A DNA stretch of 53,718 nt, from positions 1 through 53,718 of IMG/VR virus record IMGVR_UViG_3300030380_002559; one strand, 5' to 3'. The translations under genes were made by a program, and so were the position numbers. The DNA is from a virus. Lineage: Duplodnaviria > Caudoviricetes. Within the stretch, counting starts at the first letter, position 1; every line of letters starts with the position of its first letter. Under the pieces are notes generated by a model, which saw only the letters and a list, made by a program, of their open reading frames with translations, was not told the DNA's origin and did no database searches. Of this stretch, positions 19,517 through 36,412 are shown in pieces.

Positions 19517-19753
19517 TTAGTTAGTTTCGTGAATCATGCGGCCACAATGTTCCCACTCGTTAAAGTCAATAAAGAACGCATAGGTGTTCATGTCATCTTT
19601 TAGATCGACGGCAACAGGGATAGAATTATCAGGCCAAACATAAAGGTCAACGAGCTGTTTGATATACCGTCCAGCTTCGTCAAGCGAGAGCCAAATACCA
19701 CCCATGAACTTACGCTCATGGGTGTTAGTATTTTCAGCAAAGAGCGCGTACAT
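19517..19753 (-). CDS. Hypothetical protein
   Basis: 78 aa; TAATG-coupled to the DUF932 gene. Confidence 0.6.
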   Translation of the reverse strand: MYALFAENTNTHERKFMGGIWLSLDEAGRYIKQLVDLYVWPDNSIPVAVDLKDDMNTYAFFIDFNEWEHCGRMIHETN

Positions 19754-20751
19754 TATACGGCCTCTGCATACTCGATAGCTTTCTCGAGAGCTTTGCCCTT
19801 ACGGGCGGCACCGGCACCAAACCAAGCTGAATGCATGGCGTTACCTGTCTCTTGACCACGACGCTGGTGGTCCTCGACAAAGGTCACACCATTTAGTGCG
19901 CCCCACCAAGTACCCTTGGCTGCTTTGAGTGTGGCACCGGGCGACTGGTCGATCGCTGTCATGACCATATCGGCTGTACGCGTAAACTTCTCACGCATGA
20001 TCAGCTCGGGGTCTTTGGCCTTTTCGACGAACAGATCTTTCTGGTACAACTCGGCAACGAAGTTAGCGACCGACTCACCAGTGAACTGCTTCGAAGCAAG
20101 GAACTCTGCCTGCTCCTTGAACTCCTCGCGCCGCGCCTTAGAAAGACCAAGAGCCTCTTCTGCAGCTTGACGGACATCATCATCGAAAGCGCGGATATGC
20201 GGCATACGAAACGCTGCACCGCCATCGCGTAGGGCGACGGTCAATGTATTGTTACACACAACACGGATCGGTGTGAACTTGATCGTCATCGCCTTACCAC
20301 AAAGATGCGGCTGGTTAATCAAGAGGTAACCCTTGACCTCGTCACCACCCGGCAACTGGAAATCGGAAGAAATCTTAGCAAGACCCCAAATCTCAGAACC
20401 GCTTTTCAACGAACCAGCGGTCTCCATAGTCATGTGACCGGCTTCCGTGAACTTCTTAAAGAAGTCGAAGATCTCTTCGTTTTGGATAGGGACGTAATCA
20501 TCGCCACAATGCGAAAGGATACTGCTATCGTTATCGCGCGTAATAAAGTGGTGTCCATCGACAGGCATAACGCCAACACCCTCATGCCACTCGCTCTCGG
20601 TGAGCGTATAAGCAGGACGCTTAGATACGGTCCAATCGAGATCAGCGGCTTGCATCATCTCTTTAGGTGTCAGGTCAGCTTCAACCGGAACACCGAGACC
20701 ATGCCAAGGAACTGCCCCTGCATACGCCATTGTTTCAACTAAATGTGCCAT
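19753..20751 (-). CDS. DUF932 (phage/plasmid TIGR03299-like) protein
   Basis: MAHLVETMAY...PWHGLG...YVPIQNEEIFDF...ETAGSL...FTPIRVVCNNTL...GTWWGALNGVT. Confidence 0.85.
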   Translation of the reverse strand: MAHLVETMAYAGAVPWHGLGVPVEADLTPKEMMQAADLDWTVSKRPAYTLTESEWHEGVGVMPVDGHHFITRDNDSSILSHCGDDYVPIQNEEIFDFFKKFTEAGHMTMETAGSLKSGSEIWGLAKISSDFQLPGGDEVKGYLLINQPHLCGKAMTIKFTPIRVVCNNTLTVALRDGGAAFRMPHIRAFDDDVRQAAEEALGLSKARREEFKEQAEFLASKQFTGESVANFVAELYQKDLFVEKAKDPELIMREKFTRTADMVMTAIDQSPGATLKAAKGTWWGALNGVTFVEDHQRRGQETGNAMHSAWFGAGAARKGKALEKAIEYAEAV

Positions 20752-23197: not shown

Positions 23198-23602
23198 TCA
23201 TCTTGCCTTCTCAAGGCTGACAGATACTGGATCAAAAAGATAGCCCTCTGTCAACAAATACCACGCCTCGCGCGACCCAGTGATATGCCAATATTTCAGG
23301 TTCTCAATTTCTTTTACTCGACTATTACGGTCGTGGATAACGACCCGCTGACCATCGTCCCAGATGAACCCCCAAGCACAGCGGAGATCCCAAGTGCTGT
23401 TTGGTTTCCACGTCCCACCGGCTGAGATACCTAAACCGTTAGGGAAATGGTCGGGGTGAATATCGGGGTGACCTAGGTACGACTCTAGGTCAGAAAACGA
23501 TGCCTCGCCGAATCCAATCAGCGGGTATTTAACGAATGTCTCAATGATAAGCTCCTGAGACATTGGCTTCGGGTCTAGCAGCATTTGTTTTAGTTTACCC
23601 AT
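23198..23602 (-). CDS. Hypothetical protein
   Basis: 134 aa; RBS GAGGAG. Confidence 0.6.
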   Translation of the reverse strand: MGKLKQMLLDPKPMSQELIIETFVKYPLIGFGEASFSDLESYLGHPDIHPDHFPNGLGISAGGTWKPNSTWDLRCAWGFIWDDGQRVVIHDRNSRVKEIENLKYWHITGSREAWYLLTEGYLFDPVSVSLEKAR

Positions 23603-23780
23603 TACTGCTCTCCTCTACGACCTCATGTGCCTCCACACACTCTGCAGTGGAAATTTCGCCACCGGTAAGGTTCGCCCACTCTTTACAAGCATTTGCTTCT
23701 GCTTCTTCTAACGACTTACCTCTTACGATAACTCTGCGTTCTACTGTGCCCATGACGAGCACGGAGTAACTTTTCCCCAT
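23595..23780 (-). CDS. Hypothetical protein
   Basis: Likely start MGKSYSV after AAGGAGAAAG; the ORF is open further upstream to 23888. Confidence 0.55.
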   Translation of the reverse strand: MGKSYSVLVMGTVERRVIVRGKSLEEAEANACKEWANLTGGEISTAECVEAHEVVEESSNG

Positions 23781-23847
23781 TACTTTCTCCTTTTGATCTG
23801 GGTCCATCCATTGACGCCGAGATATCCGGATCTCGGCGTCCTCATCG

Positions 23848-24147
23848 TCATGCGGCTGCATAGTCGTGGCCATAGTGATCATTAGCAAGACGTGCTTTTA
23901 GCATTTTGTTTTCCGCTTCTAGGCGCATTATCTTTGCCATAGTTAGGTACATTTTAGCGATCTTACGAGTATCTGCCGCCATCCGAAGATTAAAAGCATG
24001 TTTACGCCAAGTGTCCGTTTGTGCAGAGGGAAACATACGAACTAATCGAGCCTGATAAAGTAACTCGTGGTGCCGCTCAACCATCCGACCATAATCGACC
24101 ATATGGCGACCGTAGTCGTCTAACATAGAATTAGATGTGCTATCCAT
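23848..24147 (-). CDS. Hypothetical protein
   Basis: Start MDSTSN after AAGGAGG. Confidence 0.55.
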   Translation of the reverse strand: MDSTSNSMLDDYGRHMVDYGRMVERHHELLYQARLVRMFPSAQTDTWRKHAFNLRMAADTRKIAKMYLTMAKIMRLEAENKMLKARLANDHYGHDYAAA

Positions 24148-24157
24148 TCCTTCCTCC

Positions 24158-24379
24158 TTAGTGTCTGTTAGGGACATCTTCGACTAGACCGTGGGCGATA
24201 AGATACTCGCGGTAAAAGTCAAGACCCTCTGCGTTATCGTCGAAGACTGGCTCGAAGCCACTACCGATAATCGCTGACGCTAGTAAGTCAGCCTCGGTAC
24301 GCTCCTCCTCTCGCAAAGCTCGCCATATACAAATAGCTAGCGACTGCGAGATCCGAATGGGTTTACTGATATCTGACAA
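24158..24379 (-). CDS. Hypothetical protein
   Basis: TTG start 6 nt after GGGAGG; first gene after a promoter. Confidence 0.5.
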   Translation of the reverse strand: MSDISKPIRISQSLAICIWRALREEERTEADLLASAIIGSGFEPVFDDNAEGLDFYREYLIAHGLVEDVPNRH

Positions 24380-24400
24380 GTCATGCCTCCCTAATAAGGT

Positions 24401-24440
24401 TTACTATAATAATATAGTATAGGGGGCAGGGTTTAGTCAA
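24401..24440 (-). promoter_or_regulatory. Sigma70-type promoter
   Basis: TTGACT-18 nt-TATATT; contains TATACTATATTATTATAGTAA. Confidence 0.6.
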
Positions 24441-24461
24441 AAAAGCGCAAAAACGTGAAAC

Positions 24462-24734
24462 TTATGAGTCGCGCTCTATTTGATTAGCACTGATAACGTG
24501 GATATCGCCTAACGAATACCCAATAGCGCTTCCTCGCCGACGCTCTCGTTCTATAGCAAAACCTATAGCTTGATCTTCAGTCGTAGCGTTGATTTTACGG
24601 ACACGTGTATACTCAGTGATAAGGATAACTTCATACAAAGCAGAGTTATATTTTTCGTGGTCCTTTAACTTATGTTTTTTGGAACGTGTAGTTTGATTCT
24701 GCGCCCCTCGTCCACCCCCTTGTACTTTCGGCAT
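24462..24734 (-). CDS. Hypothetical protein
   Basis: 90-aa ORF overlapping the 3' end of polA. Confidence 0.5.
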   Translation of the reverse strand: MPKVQGGGRGAQNQTTRSKKHKLKDHEKYNSALYEVILITEYTRVRKINATTEDQAIGFAIERERRRGSAIGYSLGDIHVISANQIERDS

Positions 24735-26676
24735 GGCTGATCACTTTCTCCATTTCTTTTGCGTCGCCCCAATTAGGTCCAAGGTCAACGTCTACTTTGA
24801 TTGGAACTGCTAACTCGACGCAGCTTTCCATAATCTCTTTGATCTTTTCAATCTGCTCTGGCGACTCAATCGAAAAATCTAATTCGTCGTGAACTTGGAT
24901 ATGCGGGACGATACCTTCATTGTAGAGTATCTGCATGGCCTTCTTCGTCATATCAGCCGCGCTTCCCTGAATGAGTCTATTCATTGCTTTATGGGTAAAT
25001 GCTCTCTTGATTGCGTTACCGTGTTCGGCATACGCTGTCTTGTGGTCCATAATTTTTCGTGTGCCAAATTGAGCTGGCTCCCACTTATCGAACCGGCACC
25101 GCCGCCCTAACAACGTGCGGATGCTTCCTTGTTTTGAAGCCCTCTGGACTGCTCGCTCCGATAACGCTTTTACAAACGGTACGCGGTCATGGTATTGCGC
25201 GAACAATTCTTTGCCTTCTTCTAATGTAAGTCCCAGACTATCGGAGAGCTTAGTAACACCCATTGAATAGAACAAACCAAGGTTGATGTTCTTAGCTTGT
25301 TTACGCGGTATCCCCGCCATATCGGCCACGATCTGGTGGAAGTCGGCATCGTCCTGTTGAAAGGCGTCTACGGCGTCTTGAGCGCCGCGTAGCTCCATCA
25401 AATGGGCGTAGTGTACCACGATCCGTGGCTCTTGTTGCGAATAGTCGAACGCGCCCCACTGACACCCTTCTTCTGGGATGAAGAGCGATCGAATCTTCGT
25501 ACCAATCTCAGGGTCACGTGCAGGTACTTGTTGTAAGTTCGGGTTTGAATAACTGAACCGACCTGTTACGGTACCGCCGTCGTCTGAGCGCAAGGGATGA
25601 AGTTCAGCATGAATACGACCATTAACTTGGTTTGACATTATCATCCCATCGATGAATGTCGTCCTAGCTTTATTCATCTTTCGCGCTTCAACAATTAGCT
25701 TGGGCATCTCGTGTTGATGGCCTTCTAACCAGCCTTGTTGAAATGATGGTGCGCCAAGTTCTGTACGCGGATAGTCTAAACTCAAGCCATCAAAGGCTTC
25801 CTGAATAGACTTATTTGCCCAAACCTCGATGTTCTTACCGCAAAGTTTCTTGATCTTTTGGAGAGCTGCCTCTTCTCTCGCACGAAACCATTTAGAAAGT
25901 TCATCTGCTTTATCTAAATCTACCCGTACACCACGCCACCGCATCTCGATAAGCAAGGGTGTTATCGAAGATTCAAGGTCGAAGATCGACCATAAATCTT
26001 GTCGGGTCATCTCACCCTTTTGCCATTCCCAAAGTTTAAGAGTTAATGCTGCGTCTTGCTCGGCGTATGGTCCTACATACATGGGAGGTAATTGATGTAA
26101 CCCCCCTTTAGCATCAACATTCCATGCTTCGGCGGCGTCACGTAAAAGGCTTTCGTCTTTCTTTTCTTGAAGATAGCTTTTACCAAGCGCGTTAAGAGCA
26201 TAGCTAAACCTATTTTCATCTATTAAAGGGGCAGACACCATTGTGTCAATGAGCCGGTTTTCTCGCAGAGTGATACCCTCCCTGCGCATCCACCCAATAT
26301 CGTAAGAAGCGTTGTGGCAAATAATATCTGCGCCACCGTCGATTTGAGCCTGTAACCAATTTTTGACGAGCTTCTCATTTAAGTTACCTCCTGCTTCATG
26401 CTTAACGGGTAGATAACCTGACCAAGATTCAGTAGCTACGGCGTAACCTACAACATGACCTTCGCCCCTTGCCCAACCCGCACCCTTCTCTTTAAGAGAA
26501 GGATCTCGCGTTTCAAGGTCGATACATATCTCCTTCGCTGCGGTTAGGTCAGGAAGATGTTCAGGTGGGGTCCAATCGCTATCAGGAGAGAACAAAGGCT
26601 GTTGAAGCGGGTTCTTTGGCATAGCTGGCTTCTTATCAGGTAGTGTCTGATAAGAGCTTACTATGTTATTAGTCAC
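24670..26676 (-). CDS. polA: DNA polymerase family A with 3'-5' exonuclease
   Basis: Exo motifs DLET, HNASYD, YAEQD; TGRFSYSNPNLQQVP; motif A DYSQQEPR; motif B KNINLGLFY; motif C VHDEL. Confidence 0.95.
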   Translation of the reverse strand: MTNNIVSSYQTLPDKKPAMPKNPLQQPLFSPDSDWTPPEHLPDLTAAKEICIDLETRDPSLKEKGAGWARGEGHVVGYAVATESWSGYLPVKHEAGGNLNEKLVKNWLQAQIDGGADIICHNASYDIGWMRREGITLRENRLIDTMVSAPLIDENRFSYALNALGKSYLQEKKDESLLRDAAEAWNVDAKGGLHQLPPMYVGPYAEQDAALTLKLWEWQKGEMTRQDLWSIFDLESSITPLLIEMRWRGVRVDLDKADELSKWFRAREEAALQKIKKLCGKNIEVWANKSIQEAFDGLSLDYPRTELGAPSFQQGWLEGHQHEMPKLIVEARKMNKARTTFIDGMIMSNQVNGRIHAELHPLRSDDGGTVTGRFSYSNPNLQQVPARDPEIGTKIRSLFIPEEGCQWGAFDYSQQEPRIVVHYAHLMELRGAQDAVDAFQQDDADFHQIVADMAGIPRKQAKNINLGLFYSMGVTKLSDSLGLTLEEGKELFAQYHDRVPFVKALSERAVQRASKQGSIRTLLGRRCRFDKWEPAQFGTRKIMDHKTAYAEHGNAIKRAFTHKAMNRLIQGSAADMTKKAMQILYNEGIVPHIQVHDELDFSIESPEQIEKIKEIMESCVELAVPIKVDVDLGPNWGDAKEMEKVISHAESTRGWTRGAESNYTFQKT

Positions 26677-26989
26677 CTTGACTAGTCCTGTTCCGCATCT
26701 CGGCCTCTACAAGAAAGAGATACCGACGTAAGTCACTGATATCGTCGACAAGACCCTCGGGCCGACGATCCTCATCCATAGCAGAAAAAATATCGTAATG
26801 ATGACCTAATACCTGTTTTTCAATACGATCCCATTTACGCGCCAACATCATGAAGGCACCTACACCGCCGCGCTGTTTCCAACTATCTCCGTACGACTCT
26901 TCTGCGCGTGTAAGCCCCGCGCAATCTTCATCAGCGATATTTTCTACGGTCTGTAGAATTTTACTTTTTTCTTTCGAGCCACTCGACAC
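26669..26989 (-). CDS. Nucleotide-modification-associated domain 1 (DUF1599/MazG-like dNTP pyrophosphatase fold)
   Basis: SYGDSW...RKWDRI...EGLVDDISDLRRY; context between the TS-like gene and polA. Confidence 0.6.
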   Translation of the reverse strand: MSSGSKEKSKILQTVENIADEDCAGLTRAEESYGDSWKQRGGVGAFMMLARKWDRIEKQVLGHHYDIFSAMDEDRRPEGLVDDISDLRRYLFLVEAEMRNRTSQGD

Positions 26990-27953
26990 AGGCTTTCCTC
27001 CAATCCGGTGATTCTATTTCACGGGCCTTATCTACAGCCTCGTTAATCATTTTTTCTTTCCAGAGCCACCAAGCCTCGACCATAGGTATTGCAGTCTTCG
27101 GAAAGATTTGGTTTTGGTATCCCACATGGGATTCTCCGTTGTGGAGCCAGTCGAAGAAGAGACAGACCTCGAGATCGAACTCTTCCCATTTATCGACGAG
27201 CGGGACCGGATAGATTTCATACGCTTCATAAGGGTCTGGATGAATCCCTTGAGGAAGTTTTTCATCGAGCGGCCTCCATACGTCTAAATATACATGCGGA
27301 TTACTACTGACTTGATAATAACGCCCAAGACCCATCCCCATGCAACTAGCTAAATATTCATGAACCATACTGAAGTGAACAGCATTCGCACCGTACATAC
27401 CCCAGATCAAATCATTCGATCTGTTCGTTACGGTCATATCTAAATAATAACCAAGGCTGGCTGGTCGACCGCGTAAGAAAACTTGCGTATTACAAGGAAC
27501 GTCCTTGGATGGAGAACCAAGGTCTTGAGTACAGTCCCACATCTGAAGTACAGCACGGCGGTCTAATGGGTTCTTGCGAAGTAAATCAATAACGGTAGAT
27601 AGCTGGTCACGTCCAAACCATTCAGTCCAGCGGTAACCGTAAGCACCATTTACTAGAACACCGTCATCCGAAAAGTCAGCCATCTTCTTAGCAAACATTG
27701 TCAGAGTCTTTAGATCTTGCCGACCAGCGATCATCCACAGCCCTTCAATAAAATGAAAGAAAGGGTTACAATTACGTTCTGCACTAAATAGAACACGCTC
27801 ATCCGGTCGCTCATAAACAGTCGTGAGTGGTGTCGGGAACGACAACACCGGACCATTGCGCGAGTCCGTTTCTAACAACTGACTACTCTCCCGCAAGTTC
27901 ATAACTGCGATCTGGAAAACCTCATTGACGTTTACGCCTTGTATAACTTTCAT
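26961..27953 (-). CDS. Thymidylate synthase-family enzyme, probably dUMP hydroxymethylase
   Basis: SRNG, EGLW, GAYGYRW, RRAVLQMWD, catalytic PC, RSND..WG...N (Asn indicates dUMP specificity), HVY. Confidence 0.8.
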   Translation of the reverse strand: MKVIQGVNVNEVFQIAVMNLRESSQLLETDSRNGPVLSFPTPLTTVYERPDERVLFSAERNCNPFFHFIEGLWMIAGRQDLKTLTMFAKKMADFSDDGVLVNGAYGYRWTEWFGRDQLSTVIDLLRKNPLDRRAVLQMWDCTQDLGSPSKDVPCNTQVFLRGRPASLGYYLDMTVTNRSNDLIWGMYGANAVHFSMVHEYLASCMGMGLGRYYQVSSNPHVYLDVWRPLDEKLPQGIHPDPYEAYEIYPVPLVDKWEEFDLEVCLFFDWLHNGESHVGYQNQIFPKTAIPMVEAWWLWKEKMINEAVDKAREIESPDWRKACVEWLERKK

Positions 27954-28777
27954 GGGTACTTTCCTCTTGGTGCGCCTTCTCCATTACGCACTCTTTCATA
28001 TTTATCAAACTCGCAAAGACTATGCTCGATATCGCGCATCTCTAATCGCGGTAGGAAATCTTTAGCTAAATATTCGGATGAGCATAGTAAAAGTTCGTGC
28101 ATCTCCTTCGTAAAATTATGCTTACGGCTCTTAAAGTTCAGAGGTCTACCGTATATGCGATTCAGACCGCGCATAGCACCGGGACCAGCATTAGCCCATG
28201 TATAGATGTCATCGGCCTCATCAAGAAAGTGTGTATGACGCAAGTCAGTAATTATTTCATATGACATGAAGGCTCCTAGGTACGGAAATTGCATAAACAA
28301 GTTCCATGAACCTCGGAGGTTGTTCGAGCGGATATCGTCGGCGAGTGTTTTGCGAAGGGGCCAAATGTTGTTAACGCACCAGATAACCCCATCGACCTTG
28401 TCCATTCCGTCGGGAGTTTTAATTATGTACCCACCGGTCACATATTTAGGTTGCTTCTTGATTTCTTCTCGGGCAATCTCTGGGTTCCAATCGACATGGA
28501 GATTATGGTCAAGAAGTGTTTGGCCTGTCTCTATTAGATTAAACCAACGAAAGATAACCGTGGCCATGAGAACATCGTCGTCCCCATTCAAGGGATCGCG
28601 CATCTTTTCCCTAAACCAAACGGTTGTCTTGTCGTTTTCTCTAAAGGGATTAGTAAAGCGATAGGTCTTTAAAATCTCGTCGTCAGTCCAATGGTTGCGG
28701 GAGAGGCCCATATCCTTCTTCAGAAAGATACGGTGCCTCTCCTCCATCCACCAAAAGAACCGTTCGATCGATTCCAT
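27950..28777 (-). CDS. aGPT-Pplase1 / 5-hmdU DNA kinase helical-domain family protein (thymidine hypermodification)
   Basis: ERH.I...WTDDEIL..YRFTN.FRE.DKTT...FRWFN...F.SYEI.TDL...GPGA.RGL...DIEHSLCEFDKY.R. Confidence 0.75.
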   Translation of the reverse strand: MESIERFFWWMEERHRIFLKKDMGLSRNHWTDDEILKTYRFTNPFRENDKTTVWFREKMRDPLNGDDDVLMATVIFRWFNLIETGQTLLDHNLHVDWNPEIAREEIKKQPKYVTGGYIIKTPDGMDKVDGVIWCVNNIWPLRKTLADDIRSNNLRGSWNLFMQFPYLGAFMSYEIITDLRHTHFLDEADDIYTWANAGPGAMRGLNRIYGRPLNFKSRKHNFTKEMHELLLCSSEYLAKDFLPRLEMRDIEHSLCEFDKYERVRNGEGAPRGKYP

Positions 28778-29616
28778 TACTTTTTCCTCAAGATCCAGTT
28801 GACATTGTTAGCTGTCTCCGGATACGCCGTGGCAAGAATCACACGTTGCCAGTGCTTATCGAACCGCCCTTGAATATCGTCTATCACGTGCTGTGGCCAG
28901 CGTAGATTAGCACGATGGTTACGCTTGAAGTTATTCATTTGCGTAAACGTGCCGTAGTGCCGTTCGATGGTATAGTATTTTTCGAGGAGTTCTTTGAGTT
29001 CTTCGTACCCCCATTCGTAGATGTGGTCTTTTGGGAGGATGTCGTTTGACCCATCATGGTTCGGCGTCGAGACATATGCAATGCCATTCGGACGGAGTTT
29101 ACGACACGATGCTTCGATCCAAGGTTCAATGAACTCCCTCCCCATGTGTTCGATTACTTCCGTTGTCATGAAGACATCCACGGACTCGTCCTCAACAGGA
29201 GGTTCAGGGTCCACGGTTAGGTCTTGGAGAACGATCCGGCCTTTATTACCTGTCATGGTTTTGAACCATTGATGTTCAGTAACTGGATCGTTATCATCTA
29301 CCCACCAATCGTCGAGACAAGCGGGATCAATATCCATACCGGTATAACTATTAACAATCTCCTCTTTACGAGAGACGAACGCCTTGTAGAGATAACGAAG
29401 CGTCCAAACTTCTCCGCATCCGATTTCAAGGATGTCAACAGGTCGACCAAGCTCTTTAGCTTTGCCCATAATTAACTGACCCATTTTACAAAACCGGCTG
29501 ATATGGGCCAATTCATCTGGTCGCCAGTTTGCTAACGTACCCGCACTGGCAATATCCATGCGGGTGTTTTTAGAGTTGTTCGCGTTTACCGCGAGTTTTC
29601 TACGAATAGAAGCCAT
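28777..29616 (-). CDS. Class I SAM-dependent methyltransferase-like protein
   Basis: Start MASIRR at 29616 after GGAGAGG; ILEIGCGE, YTGMDID, EVIEH, LRPNG...VSTPN. Confidence 0.8.
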   Translation of the reverse strand: MASIRRKLAVNANNSKNTRMDIASAGTLANWRPDELAHISRFCKMGQLIMGKAKELGRPVDILEIGCGEVWTLRYLYKAFVSRKEEIVNSYTGMDIDPACLDDWWVDDNDPVTEHQWFKTMTGNKGRIVLQDLTVDPEPPVEDESVDVFMTTEVIEHMGREFIEPWIEASCRKLRPNGIAYVSTPNHDGSNDILPKDHIYEWGYEELKELLEKYYTIERHYGTFTQMNNFKRNHRANLRWPQHVIDDIQGRFDKHWQRVILATAYPETANNVNWILRKK

Positions 29617-29638
29617 AAACCTCTCCGTCAGGTTAAAG

Positions 29639-29698
29639 GATGGGGAAACGACAGGCCGAACTAAGGAGAAAGCCAAAAACCCGCCGTTCCCCCGCATC
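29639..29698 (-). ncRNA. Long hairpin presenting an anti-Shine-Dalgarno loop
   Basis: 16-bp stem (5 G-U pairs, valid only on the minus strand); apical region GCUUUCUCCUU. Confidence 0.55.
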
Positions 29699-29704
29699 GA
29701 AAGA

Positions 29705-30127
29705 CTAGCTAGGAATCCGAATGTATTCCTTGTCGACCATCTCCCGATGATAGTGTTTGTAGACACGGTCTACAGGTTGTTTAGTTGGAAGCAGACCCTC
29801 CAACTTTTCCCAGAACATACCAATAGTGACGCCATCCTTACCAAACTCTTCGAGCTTTTCGAGGATAAGCATCATCTGACGCGGTCCTTTTTCTGGGTAT
29901 TTATTAAATACGATGGTCGTACCGACTTTCAGCCGACCAGTATTGGAGCGCCCTTGTGCGGCCTTTTTCTTAGCTTCGGTCACCATAACTGTTTCTTCAG
30001 ACATAATCTTCTTTCCTTTATGATACTCAGAAGGCCACCGATGGCGGGGCCAAGTTTTCTGTTCCCCAAAACCATGATCGGGAGAATATTTCCACGAATC
30101 GGGTCCGACTTGCATCCAACCACCCAT
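29705..30127 (-). CDS. Winged-helix-like protein, paralog 3 (alternative start at 30004)
   Basis: PRQMMLILEKLEEFG...LPTKQPVDRVYKHYHREMVDKEYI aligns with paralogs 1 and 2; RBSs precede both 30127 and 30004. Confidence 0.6.
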   Translation of the reverse strand: MGGWMQVGPDSWKYSPDHGFGEQKTWPRHRWPSEYHKGKKIMSEETVMVTEAKKKAAQGRSNTGRLKVGTTIVFNKYPEKGPRQMMLILEKLEEFGKDGVTIGMFWEKLEGLLPTKQPVDRVYKHYHREMVDKEYIRIPS

Positions 30128-30196
30128 GTAAACCTCCAGTCTTACTTTCTTTAAGACCTTAGACTAGACCGCCCTCTTAATAAAGTAGAAAACTAT

Positions 30197-31702
30197 CTAC
30201 ATAGAAAAATATTTATTGCTCATCGGTTGTACGATGTGAAGATTCTGTTTTGCTCGGGTAAGCCCCACATAAAAGACGCGAGTGTCGTCGTCTGGGTTCT
30301 TTTCAAAGCTTTTCCAAGTGCGGTGCGGAATATCTGTAAGCAGCAAAACATTATCTGCTTCGCCACCTTTTGCAGAATGTATGGTAGATAATTTTATTCG
30401 AGGTTTACTTGTGATCTTTTCGCCTCGGCGTAGTATTGAAAGCATATAACTACGTTCAGCGACAGAGAGCGCATCGAACATATCGTGCCAAATTAATGGT
30501 TCCGAAAGACCTGCCTTTTCCACGACCTCCGCGAGGGTGAAAGTTTCCGTTGGTGCGCAAGTATCAAAGACCTTCTTTTTCGAGCTCTTGATATACGCGA
30601 TCGCTGACGTTGCGTCCTCTGAATACGCAGAATGTCCACGGCGTAAACGCTCCCAAGCCTTGACTGAAGCAATCTTCTTTTCAGAAACAGAAGGATTGCC
30701 CTTCCTTTCAAAGTATACACCAAGGTTACGGCAGTGCGCGTCAAGTTCATTTAACAAATAATTAGACCGAGATAAGATTAACCACTCACCTGATGTAAGG
30801 TCCACATGCTCGAAACTTGCTTCGCTGACAACTTGTCCTTCCTCCTCCCGAGGATTCCAAGTTTTATTTGTTCGTGTCTTAACACGGCGTATCACTTTGT
30901 CGGCGATCCGGTGAACACTACGCGGGATGCGATAACTTTGATCCAACACTCGAGCGTTCCCCTCGCTCAAAGCAACAAGATGATCCACGTCTGCCCCTGC
31001 CCATCTAAAAATGGCTTGATCGTCGTCTCCGGCAATATAGACACGCTCCGAATTATTTGCCAAAAGCTCTACTAACCGCCACTGTAAAGGACTAAGGTCT
31101 TGCGCCTCGTCCACAAACATAACGTCTAGTTTAGGGGCCAACTGTTTTTGAACACAAAGATCAAGCATATCAGTAAAATCGTGTAAGCCTCTTGCTTGTT
31201 TAAATTGATACAGCCCTTTTTGGAACCGCTCTAACGCGAACCAGTCAATATCTTCGTCATAATGCTGGTGCCATTGCTCCCGTAACGGTACGCACCGGAG
31301 CCGCGACAAACCCTCGATAAAACTGAGCCGGTCGTCCTTCGATAGCATGGAAATCGAACCTTCTTCCATGTCCGAGCGACCAGATAATCGCAACCCCATA
31401 ATGTCGTTAAACTCGCGTAAGGAGTTACCGTTCAAAACAGAACTACGCGATAGACCTAACATTCGATGACAAAGGGAGTGTAACGTACGAAAATTCGGTA
31501 ACTCTTTCGAGCTTAACCCGAAGCGCTCCATCGTTCGGTCGCGCCCTTCCTCTGAAGCCTTCTTAGTAAAAGCAAAATACCCAATACGATCAGGCGGTGT
31601 GCCGTTTTGCATTTCTAATTCGATGAGGTTCAAGATCGTGGTAGTTTTGCCTGTACCGGGGGGACCAAGGATAATCGACCATGTGCTTGAGTCGCTGGCC
31701 AT
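30197..31702 (-). CDS. Superfamily 1 (UvrD/Rep-like) helicase
   Basis: GPPGTGKTT, AFT, TLHS, VDEAQD, GDDDQAIF, QSYR, STIHSAKGGE, YVGLTRA. Confidence 0.92.
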   Translation of the reverse strand: MASDSSTWSIILGPPGTGKTTTILNLIELEMQNGTPPDRIGYFAFTKKASEEGRDRTMERFGLSSKELPNFRTLHSLCHRMLGLSRSSVLNGNSLREFNDIMGLRLSGRSDMEEGSISMLSKDDRLSFIEGLSRLRCVPLREQWHQHYDEDIDWFALERFQKGLYQFKQARGLHDFTDMLDLCVQKQLAPKLDVMFVDEAQDLSPLQWRLVELLANNSERVYIAGDDDQAIFRWAGADVDHLVALSEGNARVLDQSYRIPRSVHRIADKVIRRVKTRTNKTWNPREEEGQVVSEASFEHVDLTSGEWLILSRSNYLLNELDAHCRNLGVYFERKGNPSVSEKKIASVKAWERLRRGHSAYSEDATSAIAYIKSSKKKVFDTCAPTETFTLAEVVEKAGLSEPLIWHDMFDALSVAERSYMLSILRRGEKITSKPRIKLSTIHSAKGGEADNVLLLTDIPHRTWKSFEKNPDDDTRVFYVGLTRAKQNLHIVQPMSNKYFSM

Positions 31703-33234
31703 TAGAACGGTTCTTCCTTCATTTCAGGCGTATCGAACGAACTATCCTGACCGGTATATTCTGGTATAAACCAGACGGTAATTCCTTTGCCTTTTACATG
31801 GAAGAAGTGATGACCTCCGCCAAGCTCACGAATACGCGCCGCTATATTATTACGGCCATAGTCCCGGAACTGTTGTCGACTGAAGTAATCAAGAAGGTCT
31901 TTTAGCCTGAAGTATGTTTTGCCCTCTTCTGTCCAAGGCTTACCTAAAAGCAGTTCGTCACGGCTTTGAGCTTGCGCTCGTTCGGTACAAAACGACTCCA
32001 GTAGCTCCATAAACTGACCTTCAACGGATACGTCTTTTGGCACTTCAATAATCGAAACAGCGTCGAGTAGCGACTGCATCGTATTACGCCAAGTATTTTG
32101 CCGTTGGGTCGGCGGCATAAAATTAAGAGCGTCCATACACCGACGTTGAAACTTGGTTTGATTTTGAAGCTCTTCTGTTGTTAATTCTAGCCGGTGGCCT
32201 TCTACGTCAAGAAACCAGATCGGAGGTTGAGAGTCCTGCTTTTGTAGATTACCAAACTGCGGTAAGCCGCCTGACGACCCTACACCGTAGTCACAAGTTC
32301 GACAAATCGCCGCGTTACAATATGCTGCGATGGGCTGATCATTACACTTATAGAGGTAGTCTTTATTATTCAAAGCACGAATAACAGTCAGCACTTCTTG
32401 AGCGCCTAATGGCGGCTTCATAAACTTAAAGTTAAATTCTTCGACTTTGCGTTCCCAAGTATCTTGAAACTTCTTACGAGCGAACACCCCAAGATCGAAT
32501 AAACCGTTGTTGCGCGTACCTTCAGGGAACCCCATTGTGCAAAGTGACCGTAAGCACGGCGGCGCGCCTTGTAAATCAGGGTCATCGTCGGCGTTATGGA
32601 TAGCTTGAGGTGATAAGTTTTCAAGTTCCCGGCGTGTGACACGCTTCGACTTAGCGTGCTCAATAAACTCTTCTAAATCGAGGATACCTTCGCCATCGTC
32701 ATTATGGCAGTAACGTGTTGAGGACGTACCGCCAAAATAGGGCATATTTAAAATATTGCCTCTATCGCCCTTTTCTAAAAGTAACTTTATTTGTTTTGGA
32801 AAAATCTCAGCGGTGCCGTAACCAAGAGCAGACGCGATTTCTTTTAATTTACCCTGCATTATCGACGCGGGTACAGACTCCGATACAAAACAATAAACAT
32901 GTGCGCCGCCCGATTTAGAACGCGCAACAACAAATGGAAGTTCGTTTCTTTTAACCAACCGCTCAACTAAATCGTCGTGTTTAAGAGGGTAGGTATCAAT
33001 GTCGATAGCCCCCCAAACACAACTGTTATCTTCCCTAATAGGTACGATCCCAAGGGACTCTTGACCGGTTAAATGATTTTCCCATAATTCAAGTAAACGA
33101 TCGTCATCTAAATCTTCTGAAACGACACGATATTGACCTTTCTGTTTACCGGGACCGTTATCCTCATTAGGACGATAAGAGCCATACGCCAATCGTAAGC
33201 CCGAAAATAATTCTGCAAAATCTTTTGCCGCCAT
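31702..33234 (-). CDS. DNA primase (archaeo-eukaryotic primase superfamily-like)
   Basis: WGAIDID, RSKSGGAH, EIFPKQ, GNILNMPY; PPC...EGTRNN PriCT-like region. Confidence 0.8.
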   Translation of the reverse strand: MAAKDFAELFSGLRLAYGSYRPNEDNGPGKQKGQYRVVSEDLDDDRLLELWENHLTGQESLGIVPIREDNSCVWGAIDIDTYPLKHDDLVERLVKRNELPFVVARSKSGGAHVYCFVSESVPASIMQGKLKEIASALGYGTAEIFPKQIKLLLEKGDRGNILNMPYFGGTSSTRYCHNDDGEGILDLEEFIEHAKSKRVTRRELENLSPQAIHNADDDPDLQGAPPCLRSLCTMGFPEGTRNNGLFDLGVFARKKFQDTWERKVEEFNFKFMKPPLGAQEVLTVIRALNNKDYLYKCNDQPIAAYCNAAICRTCDYGVGSSGGLPQFGNLQKQDSQPPIWFLDVEGHRLELTTEELQNQTKFQRRCMDALNFMPPTQRQNTWRNTMQSLLDAVSIIEVPKDVSVEGQFMELLESFCTERAQAQSRDELLLGKPWTEEGKTYFRLKDLLDYFSRQQFRDYGRNNIAARIRELGGGHHFFHVKGKGITVWFIPEYTGQDSSFDTPEMKEEPF

Positions 33235-33259
33235 ACTTAACCCTCTCTAACGGTATAAA

Positions 33260-33290
33260 TTAAGGGGACAGTGAAACACCGCCCCCTTAA
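33260..33290 (-). terminator. Hairpin/terminator after the SSB gene
   Basis: UUAAGGGGGCGGUG-UUU-CACUGUCCCCUUAA. Confidence 0.6.
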
Positions 33291-33299
33291 AGTTTGACC

Positions 33300-34094
33300 T
33301 TAGAAAGGAACTTCGTCGTTGATTTTGTCAGAAGATGCTCCTCCGGCCTCTGGATCTTTAGCCTGTACCTCACCCGACTTAATCATCTTTAGGAAATTAG
33401 CGCCCTCAAGAATCATGTCGCGGTTTGAGGCTTGGCCTTCAAGACCAATCGACCAACCGTACCAAGAACCACGGTCGTTCTGCTCAGCTACCGTCTTCAA
33501 ACGATATTTGAACAAGAACATAGGAGCTTCGACCATTGCTCCAGCGGAGTTTTTGACGCGCCGCTGTTTCATTTGGCTAACCCACTTACGAGCCTTTGAA
33601 AGCTGGGTGGACGTCATCGCGATAACCGCTTGCGTCCACTCACTTTCATCTCCATTACAGATCATGACGTAGAATTGTGCAGTCTCGGCAATGTAGTTAC
33701 CGTTGCTCAATACGAACTGACCGCGCTCATTCTTCGTAGTCTGCGTTAAGATATCTCGACTATCATGAGTGTTAATAAGGCCACCCCCGCTTTCACGCGG
33801 TGCCCACTCGAGATACTTCTTATTGTAGTAGCAAGGAACTACAATAAGACCCTCATCCCCATCCGTCGCCTCACCGGTGACAGTATTGAAGATATTACCC
33901 TGCTCAGCACCTTTGACATATTTACCGTCATTCTTGTTGAGCTGTGGGCTGAGAGCTTGTAACAGCTGAAGGAACGGAATGGCAAAGTCATCAGAGGACG
34001 TATCCTCCAAGCCTGTGCCAAGCGACAATAGATCGTCGTCTATTACTGCGACTGCACCGCCGCCGTTCTTTACTGCAACTTCGTTTTTCGCCAT
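33300..34094 (-). CDS. Single-stranded DNA-binding/annealing protein (putative)
   Basis: IPFLQLLQALSPQ...MTSTQL...NDRGSWYGW; acidic tail ending DEVPF; RBS AGGAGG. Confidence 0.65.
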   Translation of the reverse strand: MAKNEVAVKNGGGAVAVIDDDLLSLGTGLEDTSSDDFAIPFLQLLQALSPQLNKNDGKYVKGAEQGNIFNTVTGEATDGDEGLIVVPCYYNKKYLEWAPRESGGGLINTHDSRDILTQTTKNERGQFVLSNGNYIAETAQFYVMICNGDESEWTQAVIAMTSTQLSKARKWVSQMKQRRVKNSAGAMVEAPMFLFKYRLKTVAEQNDRGSWYGWSIGLEGQASNRDMILEGANFLKMIKSGEVQAKDPEAGGASSDKINDEVPF

Positions 34095-34104
34095 AACTTA
34101 CCTC

Positions 34105-34689
34105 CTATTTAGCGATCTTCGATTTAAAGCCGGTGTACAGACCAAGCAAGTCGACAGGTAAATCTGTCCCTTTTTCAATCTGTTCTTTAGCAAAAGCCTT
34201 CAGGGTTGAGTGGTGAACCGCTTCTTTGGTTTCGATCTTAATACCACGAGCTTGCAGTACGTCGACCGCAACCTTCCAGTTATCATCACTTTTACCAAAT
34301 TTTGCTGTTACTTCCCTTTTGATGATGTCACCAAAACCATTGTCGACGAGCCACATATAGGCTTCTTCGGCTTTAGCTTTCGTGATATGGGCAGTAACAA
34401 ACGGTTCGGCTTTCACCCTAGAGCCATCTGCCAAACGTATCTCAGATACGCCAGCTTCGGCCAAAGCATCAGGAAGGTCGTGTTCTTGAACGACACGTAG
34501 TTGTTCCTTCTTCGCTTTCAGCTGATCCTCGAGTTCGGCTACACCGCGCTCAAGGTCGAGTTGTTTATTTGCCAACTCAGCAATGCGACGGACTTCACCG
34601 TCGGTTGCCTCGACTGCTAGGGTGTTTATCGCCTCGCCCCCGAGGATATCGTCAAGGTTATCGTTAACCAAAGTTTTCTCCTTTTTCAA
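34105..34689 (-). CDS. Conserved phage replication-module protein
   Basis: Coiled coil, then LPDAL...LADG...WLVDNGFGDIIK...VHHSTLKAF. True start is probably the TTG near 34671 after AAGGAG. Confidence 0.65.
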   Translation of the reverse strand: MKKEKTLVNDNLDDILGGEAINTLAVEATDGEVRRIAELANKQLDLERGVAELEDQLKAKKEQLRVVQEHDLPDALAEAGVSEIRLADGSRVKAEPFVTAHITKAKAEEAYMWLVDNGFGDIIKREVTAKFGKSDDNWKVAVDVLQARGIKIETKEAVHHSTLKAFAKEQIEKGTDLPVDLLGLYTGFKSKIAK

Positions 34690-34752
34690 GGTTAGAAGCT
34701 AATTACCGTATAGTCTGTCCTATAGGTTTTAAAGGACGTTTTACTGTTTAAG

Positions 34753-34860
34753 TCCGTCATAATCTCATAATCTCATAAAAAGGTATCTAAGTAGCTGTTG
34801 CTACTGAGTAACTTTCTTATGACAATAGCGATGACATTATGAGATAGATAAGCCGTCGCG
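34753..34860. repeat. Iteron-like element B (inverted relative of A)
   Basis: 3x TCATAA at 8-bp period (34757, 34765, 34773), 2x TTATGA (34817, 34837), GATAAGCCGTCGCG (34847-34860). Confidence 0.7.
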
Positions 34861-34910
34861 AGAGAGTTCTGAGGTCACAGCAAATACTTATGTACTACAA
34901 CAACATTAGC

Positions 34911-34939
34911 TTTACTCGGGAGGTATACTATATTATAAA
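34911..34939 (+). promoter_or_regulatory. Promoter for the divergent helicase operon
   Basis: TTTACT-17 nt-TATAAA; contains TATACTATATTAT like the 24401-24440 promoter. Confidence 0.55.
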
Positions 34940-34954
34940 TCCCGAAACAGGTAG

Positions 34955-36412
34955 GTGCTTTTTATGACATTCACGTTTAAAACTAAACCGTATGATCATC
35001 AGCTACAAGCGCTCGAGGCTTCTTACCAAAGCGAATCCTTCGCGTTACTTATGGACATGGGAACTGGAAAGTCCAAGGTTCTTGTAGATACCCTCGCGTA
35101 CCTAGATAGTCAGGATTTAATTAATTCAGCTATCATTCTTGCTCCGAAGGGCGTTTACAAAAACTGGGTCGGTAAGGAACTTCCAGTCCACATGCCCGAT
35201 ATGGTAAAACACAAAGTTGCATATTGGGCTTCCCCTTTAACGAAAGCGCATAAAGAAGCCATTCGAGAAATATGGAGGCCAGACGACAACCTTCACATCC
35301 TCGTTATGAATATCGAAGCGCTATCTACTGGGAAAGCTGAAGAAGTCGCTACAAAGTTTATTTCTTCGCATGGTGGTTCGACATTAATCGCTATCGACGA
35401 GTCGACGGTAATTAAGAACCATAAAGCGCGTAGAACAAAAGCGGCTATTCGTATTGCTAAACGCTGTAAGTACAAAAGGATTCTTACAGGGTCGCCGATT
35501 ACTAAAACACCGCTAGATTTATTTGCGCAGTTTCAATTCTTAGGTGAACAGCTATTAGGTTTTAAATCCTACTACGCTTTTTGCGCTCGTTATGCAGATA
35601 TGATAAAACGCAGTGCGTCTGGTGGGTCGCACCAATATAACCAGATCCTTGGGTTCCGTAACCTCGACGAGCTTACTGAATCTATCAAGCCGTATTCGTT
35701 TCGAGTTACAAAGGAAGAGTGTCTTGATCTACCGGAAAAGACATATACAATGCGCTCAATCGAGCTAACGCCCGAACAAAAGAAAATGTACAACCAAATG
35801 AAGAAGACCGCTGTGGCGTTACTGGACGACATGGATATGGTAACTGCGAACGCCGTTATCACGCAGCTTCTTAGGCTACATCAAATTAGTTGCGGCTTTG
35901 TAAATACGGACGATGGGAATATTGTCCGGTTCAATAACAACCGTATGCCAGAGCTGTTAGCTATCTTAGAAGAAGTAAACGGCAAAGCGATTATTTGGGC
36001 TAATTACCGACACGATATTATGGCTATCGAAATGGAGTTAGCAAGAGCTTATGGTTCAAGCTCCGTAGCTACTTATTTTGGGGACACAGACGGTGAGGCG
36101 CGTCAAGATATTGTTGATCGATTTCAAACTGACGAAGATCTAAGGTTCTTCGTTGGACAGCCGAGAACAGGTGGATATGGGTTAACTTTAACTGCCGCAT
36201 CAACAGTAATTTATTATAGTAACAGCTACGATCTTGAAGTAAGGTTGCAATCAGAAGACCGTGCGCATAGAATAGGTCAAACGAACGCGGTTACTTACAT
36301 CGACATAATCGCGCAAGGTACGGTCGACGAAAAGATAGTCGGTGCTCTACGCAAGAAAATAAATATCGCGACACAAGTGCTAGAGGAAGATTGGAAAAAA
36401 TGGCTGATCTAA
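34955..36412 (+). CDS. SNF2-like superfamily 2 helicase
   Basis: DMGTGKS, DESTVIKN, LTGSP, QLLRLHQI, GYGLTLT, QSEDRAHRIGQ. Confidence 0.92.
   Translation: MLFMTFTFKTKPYDHQLQALEASYQSESFALLMDMGTGKSKVLVDTLAYLDSQDLINSAIILAPKGVYKNWVGKELPVHMPDMVKHKVAYWASPLTKAHKEAIREIWRPDDNLHILVMNIEALSTGKAEEVATKFISSHGGSTLIAIDESTVIKNHKARRTKAAIRIAKRCKYKRILTGSPITKTPLDLFAQFQFLGEQLLGFKSYYAFCARYADMIKRSASGGSHQYNQILGFRNLDELTESIKPYSFRVTKEECLDLPEKTYTMRSIELTPEQKKMYNQMKKTAVALLDDMDMVTANAVITQLLRLHQISCGFVNTDDGNIVRFNNNRMPELLAILEEVNGKAIIWANYRHDIMAIEMELARAYGSSSVATYFGDTDGEARQDIVDRFQTDEDLRFFVGQPRTGGYGLTLTAASTVIYYSNSYDLEVRLQSEDRAHRIGQTNAVTYIDIIAQGTVDEKIVGALRKKINIATQVLEEDWKKWLI

Follow-up and report, generated by a model that had tools for sequence, protein, structure and literature searches.

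The IMG/VR virus record IMGVR_UViG_3300030380_002559 (53,718 bases, estimated completeness 90%; analysed in full and called the window here) carries nearly all of its genes on the minus strand, among them four open reading frames (ORFs) at positions 26669-29616 that are followed by the gene for a family A DNA polymerase, PolA (Table 1). In order, they encode an S-adenosylmethionine (SAM)-dependent methyltransferase (MTase), an HMUDK_hel protein of aGPT-Pplase clade 1 (hel), a thymidylate synthase (TS) homolog, and a small acidic protein (orf106), and they are considered here as a candidate cassette for modification of thymine in DNA. Neighboring genes overlap throughout: MTase and hel meet at a TAATG, hel and the TS homolog at an ATGA, the TS homolog and orf106 share 29 nt, and orf106 and PolA share 8 nt. 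An earlier note, made from the sequence alone, had described four overlapping genes running into polA and proposed a thymidine hypermodification operon with a SAM methyltransferase in place of the usual tailoring enzymes; the ORF coordinates and junction overlaps confirm the arrangement. A promoter and terminator scan of positions 23500-35000 gave signal at or below the shuffled expectation and does not define the operon borders.

Table 1. Positions of the cassette, of other features of the window, and of the compared loci (L-numbered contigs).
Feature	Position	Strand	Evidence or remark
Small-terminase-like ORF, 209 aa	18600-19229		PHROG 'terminase small subunit'
DUF932 protein	19753-20751		2.6e-43
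Family A DNA polymerase PolA	24670-26676	minus	DNA_pol_A 1.6e-65
orf106, conserved small acidic protein, 106 aa	26669-26989	minus	constant island core; 33 invariant columns, 16 homologs
Divergent TS-family enzyme, 330 aa, uracil-type, predicted dUMP hydroxymethylase	26961-27953	minus	PF00303 2.3e-17
HMUDK_hel / aGPT-Pplase clade 1 protein (hel), 275 aa	27950-28777	minus	PF18723 8e-41
Class I SAM MTase, 279 aa	28777-29616	minus	Pfam Methyltransf_23 6.3e-9, Methyltransf_11 4.1e-7
MTase residues 1-32	29521-29616	minus	
Shine-Dalgarno-like GGAGAGG	29620-29626	minus	precedes MTase ATG at 29616; read from sequence
UvrD-like helicase	30197-31702	minus	phrog_1967 2e-87; upstream border of variable island
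Pam3 gp34-like and Pam3 gp33-like/DUF7307 gene pair	33300-34689		1.5e-70; 5.8e-32
SF2 helicase	34955-36412	plus	phrog_62 3.1e-119
Type B genes between hel and TS homolog	L171:6903-8941; L173:6825-9704; L169:6428-9472		
Type C island	L176:5172-11346		
L056 cluster	L056:3666-8894		
AXL3-type clusters	L042:6851-10885; L145:4920-8162; L144:934-4846; L043:5854-9749		
Kinase-like gene in L043	about L043:7140-8063		unannotated in record
PaMx11 gp49; gp52	L002:7432-8001; L002:9949-10545		RefSeq 'terminase small subunit'; 'thyA'

The MTase was assigned to the small-molecule type of class I SAM methyltransferases, with Pfam matches to Methyltransf_23 (36.2 bits, cut-off 27) and Methyltransf_11 (31 bits, cut-off 21.2). 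Its ATG start is kept in 17/17 aligned homologs and is preceded by the GGAGAGG sequence, and on these two grounds a longer GTG-initiated frame reaching 29766 was rejected. Both the EVIEH and STPN motifs to which the earlier note had drawn attention are present, and the DNA methyltransferase motifs it had described as absent are indeed lacking: a regular-expression search of the protein found no (D/N/S)PP(Y/F/W/H) and no PC, and no DNA methylase Pfam family matched. The AlphaFold2 model has a pLDDT of 70.8 (core above 85), and the top 50 Foldseek matches listed all have the class I MTase fold at probability 1.00, one being a cyclase (SpnF). The top neighbors are mostly small-molecule enzymes, including the sugar O-methyltransferases RebM and AtmM, and no DNA methyltransferase is among the matches listed. 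The weak NCBIfam leads, UbiG and Hen1, are both O-methyltransferases, and a PDB sequence search returned nothing at E<=0.01.

At E<=1e-30 the MTase family profile gathers 31 representatives, a number that rises to 210 at E<=1e-10. Across 30 divergent members G66, G68, D147, E156, H157, N186, H198 and G222 are invariant, as is, or nearly so, the 'GCG' SAM loop; the two His, the Glu and the Asn would suit general-base catalysis of the kind found in O-methyltransferases. Viral members make up 95-100% of each of the ten nearest ESM-Atlas clusters, which marks the MTase as a member of a virus-specific family. A genome-contig scan keyed on generic SAM-loop motifs returned 80 cellular class I methyltransferases matching core residues ~62-210 only, among which no true family member was recognised, which is not proof of absence from cells. 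Ten long or extended profile hits hold methyltransferase domains only, so no fusion of the MTase to another domain was seen, and complex prediction of the MTase with the clade 1 protein gave no answer (score 0.00), which speaks neither for nor against binding. The N-terminal residues 1-32 have 12 columns invariant in 17 homologs of 49-95% identity (M1, S3-R5, N11, N13, K16-M20, N30 and R32) despite an AlphaFold pLDDT below 50, and this tail could become ordered only on a partner or substrate.

The TS homolog belongs to PF00303 (63.5 bits, cut-off 24.3) and phrog_5131 (5.8e-102), with the CMP hydroxymethylase MilA as its best solved relative (3.6e-14) and identities of 42% to PaMx11 gp51 and 43% to PhiJL001 gp24. 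It falls far below the NCBIfam ThyA equivalogs (best score 56.6 bits, cut-off 327; for TIGR03284, 27.2 bits and 108.35). Alignment to a solved TS places its catalytic 'PCN' opposite 'PCH' and its 'GAN' opposite 'FN', in line with the dUMP-type Asn read earlier from the letters; the catalytic Cys and the base-specificity Asn correspond to C146 and N177 of the E. coli enzyme. In a nine-sequence alignment the Asn is found in five uracil-type sequences and is Asp in four from the AXL3-type clusters described below. The enzyme is predicted to convert deoxyuridine monophosphate (dUMP) to 5-hydroxymethyl-dUMP (5-hmdUMP), and the TS-superfamily gene beside the kinase in the maps of Pseudomonas phages PaMx11 and M6 is labelled dUMP hydroxymethyltransferase (Lee et al. 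2018, PMC5889632).

The second gene is, as had been proposed, an HMUDK_hel (aGPT-Pplase clade 1) protein, scoring 140.7 bits against PF18723 (cut-off 25; 139.9 bits in the whole-record search) and matching phrog_2396; a PDB search with the hel profile returned nothing at E<=10. Its AlphaFold2 model (pLDDT 92.0) has a helix-hairpin-helix (HhH) DNA-glycosylase-like fold, and the first 21 Foldseek matches listed, all at weak E-values (0.02-1.3), are to HhH glycosylases or to PUGT, the PaMx11 gp46 glycinyltransferase acting on 5-phosphomethyldeoxyuridine (5-PmdU) (PDB 8Z2N/8Z2M; PMC11472151). PUGT is also the top VIA structural match (8z2n_B, Z 11.2, rmsd 3.8, 216 aligned), alongside archaeal Ogg (3knt_D, Z 11.1; archaeal 8-oxoguanine glycosylases 11.1-10.3) and the queuosine-monophosphate hydrolase QNG1/DUF2419 (7ugk_A, Z 10.6), the top ten spanning Z 11.2-10.2, where for helical proteins a Z below about 13 may mean merely a common arrangement. 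Among 17 hel sequences C255 and E256 are invariant and E251 nearly so, and the resulting Glu-x3-Cys motif in the C-terminal region lines up, in a short local alignment, with the PUGT stretch holding E243 and C247. Counterparts of Glu243 and Cys247 are described as essential in two PUGT homologs, the clade 2 transferases M6 gp51 and ViI gp247 (PMC8989533), and Cys247 of PUGT is the proposed C6 nucleophile (PMC11472151). Because the conserved Glu/Cys aligns with this catalytic stretch, the clade 1 protein appears to be an enzyme and not just a 'helical domain' in a passive role. PUGT differs in belonging to the ADDT family (PF18724 rather than PF18723), in sharing 6% identity over the structural alignment, and in needing a phosphorylated substrate.

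A search for longer hel proteins found four, none with an MTase. One is a natural fusion (P0003, 625 aa) with PF18723 at the N-terminus and PF00303 at the C-terminus, which ties TS homolog and hel together functionally as a core pair. In the other three (P0001, P0002 and P0004; 506-532 aa), the clade 1 protein contains long inserts and is preceded by an N-terminal extension of unknown family, ~120 aa long and common to all three.

The fourth gene, orf106, is found in 77/80 of the hel-seeded loci introduced below, and searches against Pfam, PHROG, NCBIfam and the PDB gave no match, its profile returning only chance rows from the PDB. The assignment of this gene to Nmad1/DUF1599 in the earlier note did not hold: hmmscan gave no match at E<=10, and a six-frame search of the record found no PF07659 at E<=1. 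The one lead towards DUF1599 is the second-ranked ESM-Atlas cluster (score 0.96), in which 25% of members carry that domain. A relation to the PRA-PH nucleoside triphosphate pyrophosphatase (NTP-PPase) of phage AXL3 was tried and dropped, with an hhalign probability of 0.5%.

Tailoring enzymes of the known thymidine hypermodification pathways were searched for in the whole record with six-frame HMM searches. ADDT (PF18724; no match at E<=1), the kinase families HMUDK_HMUD1 (PF18748) and AAA_33 (PF13671), Radical_SAM (PF04055), the decarboxylases Orn_Arg_deC_N (PF02784) and Pyridoxal_deC (PF00282, group II, pyridoxal-phosphate (PLP)-dependent), and the group 1 glycosyltransferase family Glycos_transf_1 were not found. 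Apart from a chance match in PolA, the UvrD-like helicase has the only Walker A motif in frames of at least 60 aa read from stop to stop, and tblastn of PaMx11 gp46-gp49, gp52 and gp56 and of the PhiJL001 neighbors recovered hel, the TS homolog and PolA only, with nothing for gp47, gp48 and gp49. The P-loop kinase for 5-hydroxymethyldeoxyuridine (5-hmdU) in DNA that is the usual partner or fusion of hel is thus absent from the window, and these results agree with the earlier failure to see a P-loop kinase, aGPT-Pplase2, PLP decarboxylase or radical-SAM gene. Since the record may lack 10% of the genome, five related cassette-bearing records (90-100% complete) were also searched, and PF18748, ADDT and AAA_33 were missing from all five. 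A 209-aa ORF was checked as a mis-named kinase because PaMx11 gp49 carries a terminase label in RefSeq; it has no Walker A motif and looks like a real small terminase. The RefSeq labels of PaMx11 can mislead annotation transfer: gp49 was experimentally shown to be the 5-hmdU DNA kinase, and 'thyA' is attached to the HD-domain gp52.

Linkage of the MTase was assessed in two sets of viral loci that overlap in contigs, one seeded with the MTase (n=38, 45-95% identity) and one with hel (the best 80 of at least 573 viral stretches). The order MTase-hel-TS is found in 36 of the MTase-seeded loci, the other two ending at the MTase, and in seven further loci from other queries. Among the hel-seeded loci the MTase lies 3-224 nt upstream of hel in 68/80 (median 23.5 nt), is absent from eight despite at least 900 nt of upstream sequence, and cannot be seen in four that are cut. 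The earlier note had staked its proposal on the MTase being tied to this cassette in other genomes, and it is so tied in these 68 loci and, in independent lineages, to TS-family genes.

The eight loci without the MTase keep hel, the TS homolog, orf106 and PolA and differ in the genes that occupy the island, and for this reason the locus is described as a constant core plus a swappable tailoring module. Four of the eight were read gene by gene with Pfam (L169, L171, L173, L176), and the other four were assigned by tblastn layout. Type B islands encode a radical SAM/SPASM enzyme together with a conserved protein of 346 aa that matches no Pfam family, plus a CTP_transf_like (cytidylyltransferase-like)/mannose-6-P isomerase cupin protein that is seen in L169 and L173 and absent from L171; these genes sit between hel and the TS homolog, and their domains suggest a sugar-based thymine modification with a radical step. 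Type C islands carry genes of four kinds: FkbM-type methyltransferase, group 1 glycosyltransferase, Cas4-like nuclease and YfbR-like HD nucleotidase. The order in L176 (type C) is a 269-aa protein of unknown function, hel, FkbM methyltransferase, orf106 homolog, group 1 glycosyltransferase, TS homolog, PD-(D/E)XK/Cas4-like nuclease, YfbR-like HD 5'-deoxynucleotidase and PolA, so that a second, unrelated methyltransferase family directly follows hel there. That sister islands without the MTase carry other tailoring genes bears out the suggestion that it stands in for the usual ones, and in the window the whole tailoring module is the single MTase.

Relatives of the MTase were also found outside this lineage. 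A metagenome scan gave three loci, and two of them, L057 and L058, do not extend far enough to reveal neighbors. The third, L056, has an MTase 38% identical to that of the window, and the window primase, helicase and PolA have no match in it. Its genes run from HMUDK_hel through the TS homolog, ADDT, MTase and a dual-specificity phosphatase (PTP-SAK/DSPc) to the HMUDK kinase, which places the MTase family inside a classical thymidine hypermodification cluster. The phosphatase between MTase and kinase is not part of the published pathways and might strip phosphate from unreacted 5-PmdU. Two MTase-family queries (P0013, P0008) found nothing in viral contigs, and a third (P0027) found one weak locus, L055, with no TS nearby.

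In a phage collection of 50,697 records a detectable MTase relative (22-28% identity) occurs in five, representing four distinct, unrelated phages: Stenotrophomonas phage AXL3, Pseudoxanthomonas phage PW916, and a siphovirus and a podovirus, so annotated, of the Manatee Spring phages. In 4/4 the relative is followed by a PRA-PH NTP-PPase, a TS homolog and a dCMP deaminase, and in three a dTMP-kinase-like gene precedes the TS homolog (the AXL3 and podovirus records annotate it, and in the siphovirus it was read as an ORF lacking annotation; PW916 has an unannotated gap at this place). The TS homologs of these AXL3-type clusters have Asp ('PYD'), a cytosine-type signature, where the window group has Asn, and a Manatee Spring protein shows the MTase family motifs EVIEH, STP..D and (D/N)H..E. 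AXL3 DNA is reported to resist 35 of 37 restriction enzymes and to be cut only by two with pure A/T sites (PMC7504290).

PolA of the window shares 54.8% identity with its counterpart in phage 023Pt_psg01, 51.0% with the one in Pelagibacter phage HTVC023P and, next in rank, 41% with those of the Pseudomonas Ab18/PaMx11 group. By this measure the phage is related to the HTVC023P-type pelagiphages and falls within their group or a sister one. HTVC023P and 023Pt_psg01 have the order primase, helicase, small ORFs and PolA, with all four cassette genes missing together, and the cassette is accordingly regarded as an island inserted between helicase and PolA. The G+C content along the record is 43-50%. 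That of the SAR11 hosts of HTVC023P is well below this range, and given this difference the host of the window phage may not be Pelagibacter. Elsewhere in the window, the SF2 helicase gene is the sole large plus-strand gene and marks a switch in transcription direction between the replication genes and the lysis and tail genes; a Pam3 gp34-like and gp33-like gene pair lies upstream of the primase; and a DUF932 protein is encoded, a family also annotated near the MTase cluster of the Manatee Spring siphovirus.

In HTVC023P-type pelagiphages, TS and aG/PT-PPlase1 genes have been described as co-located 'partner AMGs' (auxiliary metabolic genes) near PolA (mSystems 2022, PMC9599517), the pair occurring in clades V, VIII and IX with an occasional 5'-deoxynucleotidase or glucosyltransferase and no 5-hmdU kinase being mentioned. 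The window shares with these phages the same two genes beside a PolA that is 51-55% identical, and its lineage differs in having the MTase as the commonest third partner (68/80) and orf106 as a fourth constant member. The word 'methyltransferase' has 0 occurrences in the main text of that paper, the supplements of which may list the gene. The pathway had been called probably undescribed in the earlier note, and this stands for its MTase component and falls for the TS and aGPT-Pplase1 pair beside PolA, which was already published. No link between a SAM methyltransferase and 5-hmdU-derived DNA bases was found in the literature, supplements to PMC9599517 and PMC8989533, which may show the gene in maps or tables, aside; none of the papers listed by one of the searches contains 'methoxymethyl'.

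Pseudomonas phages M6 and PaMx11 (PMC5889632, PMC8989533) resemble the window in gene order, in the identity of the TS homolog (42%), clade 1 protein (42%) and PolA (41%), and in the logic of a 5-hmdU precursor followed by tailoring enzymes. In PaMx11, however, the P-loop 5-hmdU kinase gp49 lies directly upstream of the clade 1 gene and is joined by an ADDT, an FAD lyase and an acetyltransferase, whereas the window has the MTase in the gp49 slot and none of the other tailoring genes. The kinase-dependent pathways were found by a metavirome search with the kinase as bait, and combinatorial diversity of tailoring was predicted (PMC8989533); the window lineage has no kinase and so could not be recovered by such a survey. 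A further likeness is to the 5-hydroxymethylcytosine pathway of phage T4, in which a TS-family hydroxymethylase makes the 5-CH2OH group and one transferase then decorates its oxygen by glucosylation after replication. The AXL3-type cluster (NTP-PPase, dNMP kinase, hydroxymethylase, dCMP deaminase) mirrors the T4 set, with a methyltransferase where T4 has glucosyltransferases. The window would differ from T4 in the proposed donor, SAM rather than UDP-glucose, and in the base, uracil rather than cytosine.

From this gene content, linkage and set of absences we infer a substrate, a product and a role for the clade 1 protein. Membership of the MTase in a hydroxymethyl-pyrimidine pathway appears likely, and we lean towards the more specific reading that the four genes represent one form of a thymine-modification island of highly variable content, with the MTase performing a SAM-dependent tailoring of the 5-CH2OH group. 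Its core would be the TS-family enzyme, orf106, and a clade 1 protein with a base-flipping glycosylase-like fold, which keeps the Glu-x3-Cys pair that PUGT uses to attack pyrimidine C6. The TS homolog would make 5-hmdUMP, to be phosphorylated by host kinases; PolA would incorporate the 5-hmdU nucleotide into phage DNA; the MTase would methylate the 5-CH2OH oxygen to give 5-methoxymethyl-dU, needing no 5-hmdU kinase or amino-acid transferase; and the modified base would shield the DNA from host nucleases. The O-methylation could be post-replicative, at the DNA level, or could precede replication, at the nucleotide level. The only group common to the products of uracil-type and cytosine-type hydroxymethylases is 5-CH2OH, and glycosyl-transfer machinery in known systems decorates the same oxygen. 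Because this group is shared, and because sister islands fill the MTase slot with glycosyl-transfer machinery, O-methylation of 5-hydroxymethyluracil is favored, and the methyl ether is put forward as a tentative product. The earlier note had likewise suggested an O-methyl or another SAM-derived adduct of 5-hmU. Extension of this chemistry to the MTase family as a general 5-hydroxymethyl-pyrimidine O-methyltransferase is doubtful. The window phage probably makes a DNA base that is so far undescribed.

Several observations weigh against O-methylation within such an island. The TS homolog could make dTMP, as sequence cannot by itself separate a hydroxymethylase from a methylase; the Foldseek matches of the MTase are generic (TM ~0.45); and the MTase and hel are acidic (isoelectric points 5.9 and 6.3), with no hint of DNA binding. 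All 68 MTase-bearing loci belong to one phage lineage, so the linkage partly reflects shared descent, and the AXL3-type relatives, at their low identity, may act on a different substrate. For the L056 MTase, standing beside an ADDT and a kinase, methylation of an appended amino acid is no poorer a fit than O-methylation of 5-hydroxymethyluracil, and the M6 clade 1 homolog gp55 was dispensable for glycinylation in lysates (PMC8989533).

Some of these points bear on when the MTase acts. It, and perhaps the clade 1 protein too, might work before replication, turning 5-hmdUMP into 5-methoxymethyl-dUMP for incorporation by PolA. The relatives in AXL3, PW916 and the Manatee Spring phages sit in clusters of nucleotide-pool enzymes only, the fold neighbors of the MTase are small-molecule enzymes and both proteins are acidic, the clade 1 fold has a further match in QNG1/DUF2419, an enzyme working on a nucleoside monophosphate, and the TS-hel fusion would suit such a route. 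We nevertheless judge it unlikely, since PUGT, the closest solved relative of hel, acts on DNA (PMC11472151), the characterised tailoring steps of thymidine hypermodification are described as all post-replicative (PMC8989533), and the window has no dNMP kinase to carry a bulky monophosphate to the triphosphate. The conserved Glu-x3-Cys and the match to PUGT could instead mean that the clade 1 protein is itself a transferase: Glu and Cys would attack C6 of 5-hmdU, water would be expelled with no need of a kinase, a cellular nucleophile such as an amine or amino acid added, and the adduct N- or O-methylated by the MTase, much as MnmC2 or Trm9 finishes tRNA U34 side chains. The position of the L056 MTase directly after ADDT agrees with this, as do clade 1 genes without a kinase in SP15-like phages (PMC13697223). 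Yet hydroxide is a poor leaving group, the Glu is replaced by Gln in the hel protein of L056, no clade 1 protein has shown activity, and M6 gp55 was unneeded for glycinylation (PMC8989533); MTase relatives beside a cytosine-type TS without a clade 1 gene would also go unexplained, and such a transferase seems quite improbable.

It is more improbable that the MTase has nothing to do with thymine and, as one of several clustered early replication genes, targets RNA, protein or a metabolite while the TS homolog supplies dTMP. Pfam does place it in generic families only, complex prediction and fusion searches gave no physical link, and phage replication modules often carry unrelated small genes. 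The MTase nonetheless adjoins TS-family genes in three unrelated genomic backgrounds, is mutually exclusive with the other tailoring modules of the same island, and is missing together with the other three genes from HTVC023P and 023Pt_psg01, and the TS homolog lies far under the ThyA cut-offs. Orphan DNA methyltransferases are frequent in phages, and the MTase might on that account be an ordinary N6-adenine or N4-/C5-cytosine enzyme acting against restriction. The missing catalytic motifs and DNA methylase Pfam matches, and the lack of any such enzyme among the listed Foldseek matches, make this hardly credible.

Thymidine hypermodification has so far been understood for kinase-dependent pathways only. 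Here, a large marine phage group keeps a TS homolog and a clade 1 protein without the kinase and swaps single tailoring modules at one locus, and a system of three or four genes is simple enough to learn the role of the clade 1 protein and the unknown step from 5-hmdU to thymidine. If O-methylation of the 5-CH2OH group is correct and general to the MTase family, abundant marine relatives of the HTVC023P-type phages would need only two enzymes and no kinase to put 5-methoxymethyluracil in the place of thymine, and AXL3-type soil phages would make the cytosine counterpart, two natural DNA bases unreported so far. This would be a third class of 5-CH2OH decoration, beside glycosylation and phosphorylation followed by amino-acid transfer, and the MTase would be a candidate tool enzyme for site-independent O-methylation of hydroxymethyl-pyrimidines in DNA. 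It would also explain, in a way that can be tested, why AXL3-type phages resist restriction.

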